A model generated the notes under the pieces. The model was not told where the DNA came from, ran no database searches, and was given only the letters and a program-made list of their open reading frames with translations. From a virus (lineage: Duplodnaviria; Caudoviricetes), in the IMG/VR virus record IMGVR_UViG_3300023235_001725: a stretch of 64,000 nt of DNA; one strand, given 5' to 3'. Below are positions 23,011-60,675 of the stretch, piece by piece. The stretch's first letter is position 1. Every line of letters starts with the position of its first letter. Made by a program: the position numbers and the translations under genes.

Positions 23011-23212
23011 TTTTCTATTTTTTATTCTTACTCGTTTGGCTTTTCAGTTTTCGCCCCGTTTTTAAAATGGTTGCTGGTCTCCACTTTTTTATTTTTTATC
23101 AAAACTGTTCTTCAAGATTATTCAAAATATTTTTTCAATTCTCTTTTCAGTCTACGATGTCGTTTCTTAAACTTGCCCATAATATACGTGCATGAACGGT
23201 AAAGGTTTCGAT

Positions 23213-30192: not shown

Positions 30193-30212
30193 TCAAAACG
30201 GTAAAATTTTTG

Positions 30213-30296
30213 TGACCAAGGAGGGATTCGAACCCACAAGTGCCTTTCGGACACCAACTTAGGAGGTTGGCGCAATATCCATTCTGCCACCTGGCC
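30213..30296 (-). tRNA. tRNA-Arg(CCT) with long variable arm
   Basis: CCAAC-CTCCTAA-GTTGG; variable arm TGTCCGAAAGGCACTT; A73; A at D-loop position 20. Confidence 0.8.
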
Positions 30297-30354
30297 AAAT
30301 CTCACCCAACAAATACAAGAACTTATGCTTCCACATTCCCGAAGGAGCCTTGCT

Positions 30355-30745
30355 TTTAAGATGTCCCCACAATAGGGTTAGAGCTACGCTTGTTGTCAGG
30401 GAATCGTTCCTGTCTGATTTCGTGATACGGCATCAACTACCCATCTCTGTGGCACTACCCACTTCTATTCATGCGACGACACACTAGCCTCCTGTGGGGA
30501 TATTTATTAGGGCCCGTTTCTTAAATGTCAGCGGCTGGAATCAGAGGCCTTCTGTCCAGCGGGACCGTCTTGCTGTTCCGAGGAACAGAGCAGAGGACGA
30601 CACAAGGTCTTTAACTGAGGCGCATAGCTATCGTGCCATTTCTTTACGGAGTCACTGTATCTCCACCCGCTACACCGCCATCTTTCGATGGAACTACCCT
30701 TGGAGTTGTCATCCGTTATGGGCTTTTCAGTGCCAGTTAAAATAA
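30355..30745 (-). ncRNA. Long structured non-coding RNA region (one or two RNAs)
   Basis: No credible ORF; hairpins CCATC-GAAA-GATGG and CTGTTCC-TCG-GAACAG; ATCCCCACAG/TTGTGGGGAC closing stem; RNase-P-like motif fragments. Confidence 0.5.
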
Positions 30746-30753
30746 TACCAAAA

Positions 30754-30857
30754 ATACTCGGTGTGCTATTACGCTAAAAGCTCTCAGATGGTCCCTTTAA
30801 CACCTCACGTCGCTACTCTTTAGATGATGGCTGCTTCCAAGCCTACATTCCAAGTAT
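30754..30857 (-). ncRNA. Stand-alone 23S rRNA uL11-binding (H43-H44) mimic
   Basis: ATACTTGG-AATGTAGGCTTGGAAGCAGCCATCATCTAAAGAGTAGCG-[39 nt]-TAATAGCACA-CCGAGTAT versus 23S consensus GGAUGUUGGCUUAGAAGCAGCCAUCAUUUAAAGAAAGCGUAAUAGCUCAC. Confidence 0.8.
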
Positions 30858-30859
30858 TT

Positions 30860-31270
30860 TTAAATTACACCTGAATAAACCACAACAGTCTGCCCTTTCT
30901 TCTTCTTAGGCTTACCTTGTGTTAACTCAAAAACTTCTGTAAGTATTTCGTTTTCCCCTGAAAGGCGTGTAACAACTAAACTATAAGTTTCAAGATGAGG
31001 CCCGTTGATAGGTACTCCTCCAACAATATCGATGTCAATAGAGCGTGTGTCACCATTGACAGTATTAGAAACAACGCCTCCTGTGGTGTTTTTTGGCAGC
31101 CAGACCTCAATCTTAACTTGATATTCATTTCCTCCTAGAGCAGTGATTGTAACGACGGGTTCATACACGGCAATGGATTCTTCGTCGTTATAGACGGGTT
31201 CTGCTGCAAAAGCAGAGGGCAGAAAAAACATTGAAATAAATACAATGATAATAGATGCGTAAGATTTCAT
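30860..31270 (-). CDS. Secreted hypothetical protein
   Basis: Signal peptide ending AFA; beta-rich body. Confidence 0.7.
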   Translation of the reverse strand: MKSYASIIIVFISMFFLPSAFAAEPVYNDEESIAVYEPVVTITALGGNEYQVKIEVWLPKNTTGGVVSNTVNGDTRSIDIDIVGGVPINGPHLETYSLVVTRLSGENEILTEVFELTQGKPKKKKGQTVVVYSGVI

Positions 31271-31446
31271 AAGCGTTATTTGTTTTTGTTTATATTACTA
31301 TTATACGGAGCTTTTCGAAAAAAGTTTCATTTGCTGTCTTTAAAAAACACAAGAAGCTTTACTAGCACCACATTGCCTGGGCTAGGAACCCAGGGTGTGT
31401 AAAGCATTAGGCGTCTCAGGAGATAAATCTCCATTCTTGCATTTAG

Positions 31447-31518
31447 TGACCCCGCCAGGATTCGAACCTGGGACCGATTCCTTAGAAGGGAATTGCTCTT
31501 CCACTGAGCTACGGGGCC
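31447..31518 (-). tRNA. tRNA-Arg(TCT)
   Basis: ATTCC-CTTCTAA-GGAAT, canonical cloverleaf. Confidence 0.92.
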
Positions 31519-31537: not shown

Positions 31538-32539
31538 TCATTCCTCCAATAAAAAATGATTCGAAATAACTTTAAAAGAGACTCTATCTTGTCCATCGCC
31601 GCTTACCCAAACATCTCCTTCTTTCTGAGTCTCTGGATTTAACTGGCTTGGTCCATCAGCCATTTCTAGGATGGCATCTACAGATTCAGGCAATGCCATA
31701 GACGCTGAGACAAGTGGAACTAACTTTAGGCTCATTTGAGTGGCTAATTCTTGACAATCTTTTTTCGAGAGGTATGCGTATTCATCAATGTTGAATATGT
31801 TATAAACTCGGTATTCTTTTGTCACAAGCTCATATGGATTATCGCTGATTCCAGGCCCAACCAACTCGCCTTGAATAGCAATATTTTTACCGTAAGCTTT
31901 TAATTTCTCTTCTAGCCCTTCTTCTATCGCCGAAGACCACAAAGCATTGCTTTCAAGTTTTTTATATTGATAGTTTCTTCCACAAACGCCAAATTCGTTT
32001 GCGTTATGAAAAACTGTCATCGAGAGTCCATTAAGTTTTTCAGTTACGAAAAAAGTTCGCCCCTTTAAAAGCTCTATCTCCGAATCTAAGTTTTGAATTC
32101 TTTCCTCTTCTGTCTTTTTAATAAACGACGGAAAAACTCCAATTGCACTTTCCATCATTTCTTTTGGAATAGGTGGGTCGTACTTGATTATCTGTAACTG
32201 CTCAGTTACATCTTCTCCAATTTTAAAATCTCCTGAAGAAAGAACTGACAAAGGAAGTATGAGGCCTTGTGATATTTGACCTCGAAGTTTCATTGTTCTT
32301 AATCGGAACCCCGAAACTCCATATGGCAATTCTCTAAAACAAGATTTTCGAAGAAACTCAAATTCTTCTTTCACAGGCAATAAAGAATCTATCTCACAAT
32401 AAACTACCATGTCGCCAACATTGAATTCTCCTTTTTTGACCACTGACCTCCAACCACCAACTTTTGCAAGTTCGATACGGTCAGCTTTTTTAATAGGATG
32501 TAGTGATTCTATTCTCCGAATGGTTGCTAGTTTTCTCAT
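31538..32539 (-). CDS. RNA ligase (Rnl2-related, DRB0094 family)
   Basis: Start MRKLATIRRI; N-terminal OB domain ADRIELAKVGGW, motif I TEKLNG, QGELVGPGI, EGDV, FKVISN. Confidence 0.9.
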   Translation of the reverse strand: MRKLATIRRIESLHPIKKADRIELAKVGGWRSVVKKGEFNVGDMVVYCEIDSLLPVKEEFEFLRKSCFRELPYGVSGFRLRTMKLRGQISQGLILPLSVLSSGDFKIGEDVTEQLQIIKYDPPIPKEMMESAIGVFPSFIKKTEEERIQNLDSEIELLKGRTFFVTEKLNGLSMTVFHNANEFGVCGRNYQYKKLESNALWSSAIEEGLEEKLKAYGKNIAIQGELVGPGISDNPYELVTKEYRVYNIFNIDEYAYLSKKDCQELATQMSLKLVPLVSASMALPESVDAILEMADGPSQLNPETQKEGDVWVSGDGQDRVSFKVISNHFLLEE

Positions 32540-32582
32540 GTAAGCAAATATACGCATTCAATTGGGTTTTGTTTCAAATAAG

Positions 32583-32906: not shown

Positions 32907-33731
32907 TTAATTTCTTATATATGTGTTTACAAATCTTTTAACTCCCCCAGGCTTCATATTCAAAGCTTCGCAAGCTTGTTTCACCCAACCTCTTTTATTA
33001 AAATCAATATGAGACATGAGGTTTTTTCTTTTATTAACTTCTTCCTGTGAGAGCTTAAATTTGTTTTTAAACCCATCTTTCATCTTTCTACCTTTTACCC
33101 ACCCTTGACTAAAGAAATCTTCAATAGTCTGTTTGTTAACTTTTTTAGAATCAACTCCATTATTAATCCAGCAAGTATTAAATTGAGAATTAGATTTACC
33201 AATTCCTTTTCCTTTCTTTACTATTCTCAACTTTTTAATTGTCTCAGGTGTATGCTCTTTTCCTGACCAATCATAATGGTCTTGAATGTTTGGTATTCTT
33301 CCCTCTTTGTAGGCTTTTTTTAATCCTTTTAACCTAGCTTCCTCCCATTTCTTTTTAAACTTCGGGTTTTCATCTGCTTTTTTCTTAGCTGCTTTAGCAG
33401 CACAAATAGACCTATGCCTCTGATGCTCATCACTGATAAATCCCCCTCTGCCTCCTGGCATTAGATTCATACAGTCATTCTTAGCAATTTCCTCCAATGT
33501 CACGACCTCTTTTTCCTTATCAATCAACTCCTTTCGAGAATTGCAAAACTCAAGTATCTCTCTGGAGTGACATTCAGCTCCATGCTTATTGACAGAACGT
33601 CGAAGACGCTTACCTGAACCCAGGTATCCATCTTCAACTACATCGGTGGAATGCATCCCAATATAATATCTACCCGTTAGGGTATTAGTGGTTTTGTAGA
33701 TGTAATGAAACTTCTTTTCTTTTCTAGGCAT
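32907..33731 (-). CDS. GIY-YIG homing endonuclease (Seg-like, NUMOD3 repeat)
   Basis: HYIYKTTNTLTGRYYIGMH, YLGSG, HTPETIKKL; inserted inside the tRNA cluster. Confidence 0.88.
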   Translation of the reverse strand: MPRKEKKFHYIYKTTNTLTGRYYIGMHSTDVVEDGYLGSGKRLRRSVNKHGAECHSREILEFCNSRKELIDKEKEVVTLEEIAKNDCMNLMPGGRGGFISDEHQRHRSICAAKAAKKKADENPKFKKKWEEARLKGLKKAYKEGRIPNIQDHYDWSGKEHTPETIKKLRIVKKGKGIGKSNSQFNTCWINNGVDSKKVNKQTIEDFFSQGWVKGRKMKDGFKNKFKLSQEEVNKRKNLMSHIDFNKRGWVKQACEALNMKPGGVKRFVNTYIRN

Positions 33732-52451: not shown

Positions 52452-52523
52452 TCTACAAATGTAATCAATTTTACAAATATAAAAACTGTTCGAAGGGCGG
52501 CCTTTTTCTATCTGTAATTCAAG

Positions 52524-52595
52524 AGGGGCGTAGGGGGTTCGAACCCCTGACGTACAGGGTTAAAGCCTGATGTTCTACCTCTGAACTAACGCCCC
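52524..52595 (-). tRNA. Putative ochre suppressor tRNA (anticodon TTA)
   Basis: GGGGCGT/ACGCCCC acceptor, U73, CAGG-CTTTAAC-CCTG with canonical 7-nt loop, T-loop TTCGAAC. Confidence 0.8.
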
Positions 52596-54919: not shown

Positions 54920-55062
54920 TCCTGGAGGAAGGGCTCGAACCCCCGACCCCCACCGTTCGATTCCAATTCTCTACTTCACAACCCTTGTGGCCACGCAGGT
55001 TGCGTTTCAATCCTTTTCCTCATTTATCAGGGTGGTGCTCTAACCAACTGAGCTACTCCAGG
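54920..55062 (-). ncRNA. tRNA-Ile(GAT) with about 70-nt insertion in the anticodon loop
   Basis: CCTGGAG/CTCCAGG, canonical D and T arms, CCACC-CTGATAA-[insert]-GGTGG; insert contains CTGCGTGGCCACAAG. Confidence 0.7.
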
Positions 55063-59062: not shown

Positions 59063-60583
59063 TTATTCCTTAGTTGCAAGCTCAGCAAAATCAACATAAT
59101 TGTTGATAGTGTTGATAAGCGCTCTTTTGTCGACTTCTAGATTGTCAATGACATCAAAAATCTTTTCAGAGAATCCTCTTAGCGCGAATACGTTCTTCTC
59201 TGGGAACTGCATGCTTCCGCTTGCAGCCAAGTTGAACTCGTAAACTTTACAGTCCTGAGCACCGTACTTCTTCTTGTACGCTGCAAACTGAGTTTTTGGA
59301 GTATTGTACTCCATCCACGCTTGCATGTCCGAGAAGATGAATACACGGTCGTATTTCGCCTTCATCTTAACGAAGATGTCTTGGAAGTTCGTTCCGTGAC
59401 CAACCCTGTACTTGCCAACGTTGCCGTAGCCTTGGTTTGTATCAACAATCCAGTTTGCCATACCCATTACTGAGTCATTCACGTTAACTGGAAGGTACAT
59501 TGCGTGTGTTCCAAACGACATTACATCAGCATCACTAGCCTTGGCCATCATGGCTCCAAATAGAGCTGCCACTTTATTCCTGTAAGTTTTACCTCCAGCA
59601 ATTGGGCAATCCATAGAACCTGACAGGTCAATTACGACTGCAGTGTTTCCATCAAACTTTGGAATGTTAGAACAAGCTAGGTCTACGGCGGTGTTAAGCG
59701 CTCTTTGAACTTTCTTAGACTTTGTTCCAGTCAACACTGTAATCTCGTCGAGTGCAGTGATGTATCTGAATGGAAGAATCAGTGACTTCTTAATTCTTGC
59801 CTCTGTAGTCAACAGCTCGCATGCCTTGTTAAGAACCTCGTCAGAAGCATCTTGGATGATGTTTCTAAGGTTTCTTAGAAGAGCAAACTGTCCAATCTTA
59901 CCTGACATAACCAAGTCAGACCAAGCCTCAGCTTTGTTTGCGGCTTTCTCCTCAGAGGTCTTCGCTCCCTGGCCAGCTGCGGACAGCTTAGACTCGAAAG
60001 TGTTTTCACTCTTTAGGGTTCCAGCAACAAGCTCGGCAAGTGCCTTCTCGTTTCTAGCCGTTCCTTTTGGACGAACCAAGTTTACAACGTCAACAAGCGA
60101 TACTTCATTCTTGTCTCCTCTGTACTTGGCAAGCTGGTATGCATCGAACTTTCCGAAAGCTTTCTTGAAACCTTTCTTTAGCGCGTTTGGCAAAGATGCT
60201 TTCTTACCCTCTCTACCGAAGTAGTAGGACATAATCTCAGTCATGTCGTCTGGACGACGTACAATAGCTGCGTAAAACTCTTTAGCCCAGGCCTTACCTG
60301 AGGCGTGCTTAGCGATTTCACCCGCAAGTACGTGGGTGATAGAACGCATTCCAAACTCGTTACGGGCATAGACAGCCGCCTTTGCTGCGAACTCTGGGTC
60401 CACTTTGCTAAGAACGGATGTCAACTCCTTTATTTGGTCTCCTGCCTTCGAATAGAAGTCATCAGACACAAACGAGTTCAACAGAATCGTCACAAGCTCT
60501 AACTCTGGAGTCGACTTATAAGCCTCTCCTCCCGCTTTGTTGGTAGTCATTTCTACCTTTGATTTTTCGTTAAATTTTGACAT
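59063..60583 (-). CDS. TROVE-domain Ro60-like RNA-binding protein
   Basis: Start MSKFNEK; NKAGGEAY, ARNEFGMRS, FDAYQLAKYR, ALLRNLRN, vWA DLSGSM, FSDMQ, GFSEKIF. Confidence 0.95.
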   Translation of the reverse strand: MSKFNEKSKVEMTTNKAGGEAYKSTPELELVTILLNSFVSDDFYSKAGDQIKELTSVLSKVDPEFAAKAAVYARNEFGMRSITHVLAGEIAKHASGKAWAKEFYAAIVRRPDDMTEIMSYYFGREGKKASLPNALKKGFKKAFGKFDAYQLAKYRGDKNEVSLVDVVNLVRPKGTARNEKALAELVAGTLKSENTFESKLSAAGQGAKTSEEKAANKAEAWSDLVMSGKIGQFALLRNLRNIIQDASDEVLNKACELLTTEARIKKSLILPFRYITALDEITVLTGTKSKKVQRALNTAVDLACSNIPKFDGNTAVVIDLSGSMDCPIAGGKTYRNKVAALFGAMMAKASDADVMSFGTHAMYLPVNVNDSVMGMANWIVDTNQGYGNVGKYRVGHGTNFQDIFVKMKAKYDRVFIFSDMQAWMEYNTPKTQFAAYKKKYGAQDCKVYEFNLAASGSMQFPEKNVFALRGFSEKIFDVIDNLEVDKRALINTINNYVDFAELATKE

Positions 60584-60635
60584 CTCGTCGTTGTTTATAA
60601 TTGTTGTTATTCTATTAATTCTTTGTTTTTGGCGC

Positions 60636-60675
60636 ATAAAAAAAAAGCACCACATCTTTGCAGAGGGTGCTTTTT
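60636..60675 (-). terminator. Terminator-like hairpin between Y-like RNAs and the TROVE start
   Basis: AAAAAGCACC...GGTGCTTTTT with U-run on minus strand. Confidence 0.55.

Follow-up and report, generated by a model that had tools for sequence, protein, structure and literature searches.

The 64,000-nt stretch of phage DNA analysed here (hereafter the window) carries a copy of the GTPase-associated centre (GAC) of 23S rRNA, about 100 nt long, on the minus strand at positions 30754–30857. The comparative analysis shows this element as a predicted gene for a small structured non-coding RNA, with a core of approximately 98–116 nt (30757–30854 plus a stem extension). The same comparison shows that the putative RNA belongs to a large phage-borne family. 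The source, a large phage, derives from a salt-lake metagenome, and the stretch is present in 20 sequencing runs, all of them DNA.

Positions 30854–30757 of the minus strand are equivalent to nt 1051–1108 of E. coli 23S rRNA, and E. coli numbering is used throughout (nt 1051 = 30854, A1061 = 30844, G1067 = 30838, C1072 = 30833, U1090 = 30815, G1091 = 30774, A1095 = 30770, A1101 = 30764 and nt 1108 = 30757). When the insert described below is removed, nt 1057–1102 are identical to E. coli-type 23S at 40/46 positions, and to the best among 111 real 23S rRNAs at 42/46. The 27-nt H43 core differs from that of E. coli by two mismatches; it occurs once in the window and in none of 100 shuffles. The near base-for-base match to H43–H44 claimed in the initial annotation is thus borne out. 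According to a blastn search of the entire 64-kb window against 121 real rRNA loci, the rRNA match is confined to 30815–30870 (115 loci), and the rest of the matches are tRNAs. In Rfam 15, the element is unmatched, LSU models included, both with the whole window at gathering thresholds and with 30300–31450 at E <= 10. The rRNA identity of the window copy ends at 1054/1105. These searches agree with the earlier statement that flanking rRNA is absent: 30815–30870 is the sole rRNA match of the window, so that only this domain resembles LSU rRNA, and the similarity stops at the domain edges.

Read along the minus strand, the element consists of the AUACUUGG stem strand, an A, a 25-nt H43 hairpin, CUAAAGAGU, 40 extra nucleotides, GCGUAAUAGC, ACA and CCGAGUAU. 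Its parts are assigned as follows.

30850–30863, minus strand: 5′ strand of the closing stem (H42-like); 30857–30850 correspond to nt 1048–1055 (AUACUUGG) and form the core of 8 bp.
30863–30858, minus strand: optional A/U extension of the closing stem, overlapping the UAA stop codon (30862–30860) of the upstream ORF.
30824–30848, minus strand: H43 equivalent, nt 1057–1081 including the 1065–1073 loop, assigned by alignment and family covariation.
30815–30823, minus strand: junction strand, nt 1082–1090 (CUAAAGAGU), with A1084, A1085, G1087 (pairs with C1102), A1088 and U1090 (pairs with A1101).
30779–30814, minus strand: inserted arm of 36 nt, built from an AGC/GCU base helix, an internal loop and a stem-loop of 5 bp; it is a near-minimal version of the family's variable arm.
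30775–30778, minus strand: UUUA linker from the arm to G1091; the family consensus is UUUR.
30765–30774, minus strand: tip of the H44 hairpin, nt 1091–1100 (GCGUAAUAGC); G1091–C1100 and C1092–G1099 receive the triples of G1071 and C1072.
30754–30764, minus strand: A1101, C1102 and A1103, then the 3′ strand of the closing stem (CCGAGUAU, 30761–30754), with an optional extension to 30748.

The closing stem of its own, annotated earlier with 8 bp, is found between 30857–30850 and 30761–30754, and is extendable to 14 bp, at 30863/30748. The letters of the H42 core (1045–1053/1106–1115) are not rRNA-like. The window copy has all of the 1057–1059/1079–1081, 1062–1064/1074–1076, 1087–1102 and 1091–1092/1099–1100 pairs, and the letters of the triples G1071·(G1091–C1100) and C1072·(C1092–G1099) are all present. 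The G reported at the A1067-equivalent position is located at 30838. The 5′ strand of H44 (1087–1092) is interrupted by the 40-nt insert between 1090 and 1091. Energy-only folding of the element is no better than that of shuffles (z = −0.76). Thus, the evidence for the structure rests on covariation and not on energy.

The insert of the window copy is made of the 36-nt arm and the 4-nt UUUA linker, and is the second shortest among the copies found. The shortest one, of 29 nt, is a plain 7-bp hairpin in the copy L249, which shares G1067 and A1061 with the window copy. In the initial annotation, a 39-nt insertion bounded by a TAGCG direct repeat was placed at the H44 loop. The extra nucleotides and the UAGCG repeat do exist (30815–30811 and 30776–30772, 39 nt apart), and the repeat lets the insert be written as 39 nt within the H44 loop. 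However, neither that placement nor the meaning given to the repeat holds. The insert is located between U1090 and G1091, at the base of the H44 hairpin, in 118/118 aligned family members. The repeat is absent from all other members, and the GUAAUA loop is intact 3′ of the insert in all; the placement was therefore revised to 1090/1091. According to the alignment, the repeat is a coincidence of U1090 + AGCG (arm) and U + A (linker) + GCG. As it is not a feature of the family, it is no sign of insertion or excision.

The occurrence of the same isolated domain in other phages, raised in the initial annotation as a check, was examined by four pattern scans of IMG/VR. At least about 160 distinct copies were obtained after deduplication, on contigs of up to 409 kb. 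The first scan, with the exact H43-core pattern, gave 28 contigs, of which one (L025) has a true 23S gene; in the other 27, the copy is isolated and surrounded by tRNA and tmRNA genes. The second, with a looser 5′ pattern, gave 113 contigs; the third, with a 3′-half bait, at least 120 matches; and the fourth, with the 5′ pattern carrying U1072, 42 further matches. Real rRNA accounts for just 1 of 114 viral matches, and contaminating rRNA does occur in some 'phage' records (L025 and several short records). Among the matches listed for the same 5′ pattern in bacterial and archaeal loci, the split, insert-bearing form was found in 0/120, and all were ordinary rRNA. These listed matches are chiefly 23S of the Firmicutes and Actinobacteria types, which naturally read AAAGAGU.

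Cultured phages also carry the element. The carriers include the Pseudomonas phages pf16, Astolliot, Milchi and UNO-G1W1, Aeromonas 4_4572, Xanthomonas XacN1, Cronobacter GAP32, Pectobacterium CBB, Serratia BF, Yersinia fHe-Yen9-04 and the Erwinia pEa_SNUABM phages. The pf16 copy occupies an unannotated gap from tRNA-Asn to tRNA-Pro, and the GAP32 copy an unannotated intergenic gap. Annotation of the element is absent in every GenBank phage record inspected. The window copy has every mark of the family: the H43-like hairpin with its conserved letters (1059–1066 and 1077–1079) and 1065–1073 loop, the arm at U1090/G1091 followed by UUUR, A1101, a closing stem of its own, arbitrary in sequence and starting at 1054/1055–1104/1105, and a location on the tRNA strand.

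The anatomy of the family was analysed in columns of E. coli numbering, using 76 or 118 phage copies per analysis and the 111 real 23S sequences for comparison. The phage copies hold rRNA letters inside approximately 1055–1104, whereas outside this range the letters are arbitrary but complementary. In the real rRNAs, A1048, C1049, A1050, C1052, G1107, U1108 and C1109 are conserved outside the core. The columns of the closing stem (1047–1055/1104–1112) are 77–100% paired with all four Watson–Crick types, compared with 27–42% when the register is slid by one. The H43 pairs 1057–1081 and 1058–1080 covary across the family. The H42 columns are near-random yet complementary, and by this comparison helix 42 is replaced by a plain covarying closing stem and the uL10 site is not copied. 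In the ribosome, L11 and thiostrepton contact H43, while the L10/stalk site amounts in essence to helix 42 and its conserved core (PMC1635324). Judged from the retained letters, the family copies the uL11/thiostrepton/factor surface (H43 and the H44 hairpin) and discards the uL10 site. The mimicry of the uL10 site suggested earlier is thus not supported, the helix-42 letters having given way to a generic covarying stem.

Position 1101 is A in 73/76 phage copies, versus U in 108/111 real 23S rRNAs. The rRNA GAC has U·U at 1090/1101, whereas the phage family has a U1090–A1101 pair, formed in 118/118 copies. In the base helix of the arm, the first two pairs are present in 118/118 copies with four pair types, the third in 90% and the fourth in 74%. 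The linker reads UUUG in 102/118 copies and UUUA in 12/118, the window copy among the latter. The length of arm plus linker ranges from 29 to 369 nt, with a median arm of about 130 nt.

No universal motif was found across the arms, and the inserts show no similarity to other parts of rRNA. In a number of arms (L020, L032, L033, L048, L053, L064, L066, L087, L098 and about ten more), a GCACCCCGGAAACGGUAAGGC-type hairpin recurs near the 3′ end, and the same arms contain a GUGCGAAAUGC ... AGUGAUGUGC pair resembling a k-turn or loop-E element. These modules suggest that the arms of one large subfamily may have a conserved architecture of their own. A copy of the sarcin–ricin loop (SRL) in the window insert was considered and rejected: no SRL-like 14-mer is present there, and the family is not enriched over shuffles, with 2 matches (L043 and L295) among 118 inserts at <= 3 substitutions versus 0.9 expected. 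In L043 and L295, which have homologous arms with inserts of about 313 nt, the matches are AGUA-C-GNRA-G-GAA hairpins resembling the sarcin–ricin loop at insert position ~223–238. An SRL-like hairpin in a small long-arm subfamily is possible.

In rRNA, the triples G1071·(G1091–C1100) and C1072·(C1092–G1099) lock the two loops together and build the uL11/thiostrepton site (PMC2952862, PMC8614978). Among the matches listed for the C1092–G1099 3′ half, C1072 is found in 42/42 copies. Conversely, the C1072 copies recovered by the 5′ half have C1092–G1099 in 81 cases and U–A in two. In the U1072 copies, U1092 is found in 34/34, with A1099 in 26 and the wobble G1099 in eight, and C–G in none. The covariation of 1072/1092/1099 gives a Fisher p of 2e-27, with related sequences counted as if they were independent events. 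The U1072 copies have 32 different closing stems and arms of 82–358 nt. As the tertiary triple 1072·(1092–1099) covaries, the GAC fold is kept, and there is strong sequence-level evidence that the RNA family adopts it. The free-standing, stem-closed copy of the GAC proposed in the initial annotation, as opposed to a fragment of rRNA, is supported by the recurrence of the element and by this covariation.

Intermediate states of the triple switch are observed in two forms. L054 and L079/L092 combine C1072 with U1092–A1099, and L339–L344, L364, L376 and L380 combine U1072 with U1092·G1099.

Among the matches listed for the search without the 5′-half constraint (42 copies), G1059, U1060, G1063, U1066, C1072, C1075, A1077 and C1079 are invariant, as are A1084, A1085 and G1087–U1090. 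The variable positions of the family are 1061, 1067, 1068, 1086 and 1095. Position 1067 is G or C instead of A in about 15% of the C1072 copies, and G in 24/42 of the U1072 matches. Position 1068 is A instead of G in 15/42 copies among the matches listed for the 3′-half bait, and position 1095 is C or G in a few lineages. Since A1067, G1068 and A1095 vary, the constraints on the family differ from those on the ribosome. The variation of A1067 and A1095 also weakens the case for an exact ribosome-like engagement of translation factors. By these counts, the G1067 of the window copy is a recurrent state of the family. Substitutions of A1067 lead to thiostrepton resistance (PMC8614978), and weak binding of thiostrepton by the window RNA is predicted from its G1067.

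The gammaproteobacterial phage copies have GU at 1089–1090, whereas E. coli-type 23S has AA. A1101, the insert site and the UUUR linker are common to all copies and absent from rRNA. These shared derived characters, together with GU versus the host AA, argue for a single old phage lineage of the RNA, which would have passed from phage to phage, over repeated acquisition from hosts.

The genomic surroundings were compared at 118 family loci. The nearest tRNA gene is at a median distance of 17 nt and lies on the same strand in 93/93 cases, and 816/816 tRNAs of the family loci are co-oriented with the element. In the window, the element is on the strand of all 15 tRNAs (minus). The window features considered here are given below.

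30212–30296, minus strand: tRNA-Arg(CCU), the next downstream gene, 457 nt from the element.
31446–31518, minus strand: tRNA-Arg(UCU), upstream, 589 nt from the element.
30860–31270, minus strand: upstream ORF of 136 aa, whose stop codon abuts the element; context only.
31538–32557, minus strand: RNA ligase (PHA02142 OB-fold + RNA_ligase), about 700 nt upstream of the element.
32907–33731, minus strand: SegE-like GIY-YIG endonuclease, 2 kb from the element.
59063–60655, minus strand: 530-aa protein, PHROG 850 ('RNA-binding protein').
23021–23089, minus strand: full-length DUF805 RNA motif (RF03081; 78.5 bits, E = 8e-13).
52523–52595, minus strand: tRNA with the anticodon UUA, which would read UAA.

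The window element is not flush with a tRNA, the flanking tRNA-Arg genes being 457 and 589 nt away as against the family median of 17 nt. The 136-aa ORF matches neither PHROG nor Pfam families and lacks homologues in the family loci retrieved, and no conserved protein neighbour was found across the family loci. A GIY-YIG homing endonuclease is also present in 11 other family loci. The accessory minus-strand region contains a DNA ligase and a Clp-type ATPase as well, in addition to the DUF805 RNA. Such a neighbourhood of RNA-repair and mobile-endonuclease genes is typical of the tRNA regions of large phages. Sigma-70 promoters and intrinsic terminators near the element are at the shuffle level. 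When contigs from RNA-type runs were matched to the pf16 copy, they were dominated by genuine 23S over the H43 core; the same comparison gave a few contigs of related elements, from libraries possibly containing DNA.

Other observations concern the same region. TAA is the commonest stop codon of the long ORFs in the window (26/48), and there is no sign of TAA reassignment in the window. Read-through of TAA making the element region coding was rejected, as seven read-throughs would be needed within 135 codons, and no codon serves more often as a true stop than TAA. An Rfam tRNA match at 54920–55062 (minus strand; 49.9 bits, model positions 1–71 over 143 nt), for which there is no ARAGORN call, possibly represents a tRNA gene interrupted by about 70 nt of inserted or intronic sequence. 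The 457 nt between the element and tRNA-Arg(CCU) (30297–30753, minus strand) contain no ORF, have a GC content of 48% versus 39% for the window, and include three GGGUAGU repeats. Neither an Rfam match nor a fold signal (z = +0.76) was obtained for this segment, and nothing similar to it occurs in the fetched phage loci.

Concerning the function, we give about an even chance to the reading that the RNA is a free, trans-acting decoy or mimic of the ribosomal GAC, co-transcribed with tRNAs and most probably capturing host uL11. The RNA would be co-transcribed with the neighbouring phage tRNAs, and the transcript would be trimmed to the closing stem and accumulate as a stable RNA. It would fold like the isolated 58-nt GAC domain and act in trans as a mimic of that site. 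Host uL11 would most probably be captured and, with uL11 or alone, the RNA may also capture a protein that reads the GAC. The translation apparatus of the infected cell, or its stress or defence sensors, would then respond differently. The candidate purposes are a lower amount of uL11 on ribosomes, trapping of a GAC-reading protein, or absorption of a GAC-directed toxin. Because only a short hairpin is left of the arm in the window copy, the GAC-like core is the expected seat of the activity.

A phage uL11 domain was found in none of five large carrier genomes, in contrast to the control, in which the domain was found in 14/14 cellular genomes. uL11 is not reported among viral ribosomal proteins (PMC6375957). 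With no phage uL11 in these five genomes and no protein conserved next to the element, a conserved partner would be expected among the molecules of the host, most obviously uL11. Several points count against the decoy. The window element abuts the stop codon of an ORF and not a tRNA, with no promoter or terminator signal above shuffles; a stoichiometric decoy must compete with tens of thousands of ribosomes; A1067, G1068 and A1095 are not strictly kept; and the arm interrupts the 5′ strand of H44.

A more elaborate form of capture, which we consider less probable than the simple decoy and hold only tentatively, is that the RNA and host uL11 would form a free RNP displaying the GAC, a 'ribosome-in-pieces'. 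By trapping RelA, a translational GTPase or a defence toxin directed at the GAC, this particle would dampen a stringent or abortive-infection response or retune translation. If true, it would be a new class of viral counter-measure, working by copying a functional centre of rRNA, and the lineage-specific arms, with the SRL-like hairpin of some members, would extend the mimicry.

The RNA may instead serve as a spare GAC, that is, as a substrate for a host or competitor enzyme (an ADP-ribosyltransferase, nuclease, glycosidase or methyltransferase), so that the ribosomes are spared; this seems rather unlikely. Phage tRNAs which replace or shield the tRNAs cut by anticodon nucleases provide an analogy. 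The setting fits, with the RNA ligase 700 nt upstream and tRNAs and tmRNA at the other loci, and an arms race at the attacked nucleotides could produce the variation at 1067 and 1095. An enzyme of this kind exists: the toxin Tre23 ADP-ribosylates H44 of 23S at about nt 1095–1098 within a 1043–1123 fragment, and blocks the GTPase of EF-G (PMC8661411). Tre23 is, however, an interbacterial T6SS toxin, a decoy would do little against a toxin that acts catalytically, and no reversal enzyme is conserved beside the element. No anti-phage system targeting the GAC was found in literature searches, and we know of none.

It is slightly more doubtful still that the GAC-like core is a scaffold or handle, namely a compact and nuclease-resistant platform, possibly also a processing signal of the tRNA polycistron, that stabilises and displays the variable arm, which would carry the real, lineage-specific function. 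In favour of it, the arms reach a median length of about 130 nt, are structured and are built of modules (recurrent hairpins and k-turn-like elements), two members have an SRL-like hairpin, and the position and linker of the arm are strictly fixed. On the other hand, the arms have no universal motif, and the minimal members (29-nt insert in L249, 40 nt in the window) hold the core with almost no arm. The loop nucleotides, needless for a mere scaffold, stay nearly identical to rRNA across very divergent phages.

The remaining two readings are contradicted by the data. An intron or intervening sequence in a captured rRNA exon, with the GAC-like flanks as co-converted exon remnants or a homing site, is very improbable. 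The GIY-YIG homing endonuclease lies 2 kb off and occurs in 11 other family loci, and the insert starts after an invariant U and usually ends in G. However, inserts of 29–100 nt are far below the size of group I/II introns, and the inserts match no Rfam intron model. The window arm has 36 nt with 3 + 5 bp and is not a long duplex of the RNase III type, the last insert nucleotide is A in 12/118 copies including the window copy, and the TAGCG repeat is peculiar to the window copy. The flanks end exactly at the domain boundary, where a covarying stem not derived from rRNA begins. Least probable of all, a functionless captured rRNA fragment or an assembly chimera, which the high 23S identity over about 35 nt and the contaminating rRNA in some 'phage' records might bring to mind, is refuted by the covariation and by the recurrence in independent phage genomes: the identical DNA is present in 20 sequencing runs, the similarity ends at the domain edges, and at least about 160 distinct copies carry compensatory changes and family-specific characters.

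Compared with the GAC of 23S rRNA (H42–H44; the 58-nt uL11/thiostrepton domain, nt 1051–1108), the phage RNA has the same helices, and H43 and the H44 hairpin match near letter-for-letter. The family retains U1060, A1077, A1088 and the triple partners G1071 and C1072. It differs in being a separate gene, with an arbitrary stem for H42 and with the arm and UUUR linker at 1090/1091; the window copy differs also by G1067 and A1061. The mimics in ribosomal protein leaders (the L10 leader and the L1-binding leader of the L11 operon) and the 23S-methyl motif are likewise RNAs that imitate a protein site of rRNA, and a protein directed to the ribosome binds them in its place. The ribosomal protein leaders are cis-regulatory pieces of mRNA in cellular operons, and imitate only a few nucleotides. 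The phage RNA, unlike them, is a near-complete copy of a domain and stands alone among tRNAs, with no ribosomal protein or methyltransferase gene adjacent. In agreement with this, the Rfam models of ribosomal protein leaders and rRNA-mimicking cis-regulators do not match the element at E <= 10, and its neighbours are an ORF without a family, tRNAs and the RNA ligase. The intervening sequences of 23S rRNA (helices 25 and 45) similarly place a stem-loop of variable length at one fixed point of a conserved rRNA structure. They are located within true rRNA genes and are removed by RNase III, whereas the insert-bearing structure here is a free-standing copy and not an rRNA gene. Phage non-coding RNAs beside tRNAs (GOLLD and ROOL) and the tRNA-mimicking Y RNAs are also structured, some of them with decoy-like roles, and are often adjacent to tRNAs and co-oriented with them (PMC5737381). 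They have no relation to the element in sequence or structure, and none of them copies a domain of rRNA.

No prior description of the family was found in Rfam 15 or in full-text literature searches, and it is mentioned neither in a 2023 survey of 10,006 phage structured RNAs nor in a 2017 catalogue of 224 motifs. To our knowledge, mimicry of rRNA is otherwise known only from the short cis-regulatory leaders of cellular operons. No described counterpart was found for this putative viral RNA gene, which stands alone and copies a whole functional centre of the ribosome together with its tertiary triple.

The RNA recurs in well over a hundred phage lineages, and the family needs annotating in phage genomes. 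Carriers of tractable hosts (Pseudomonas putida pf16, Cronobacter GAP32, Pectobacterium CBB and Xanthomonas XacN1) make the proposed function directly testable, and the window copy and L249, being close to minimal, lend themselves to binding and structural studies. The results suggest that phages may manipulate or protect the uL11/GTPase site of the host with an RNA.
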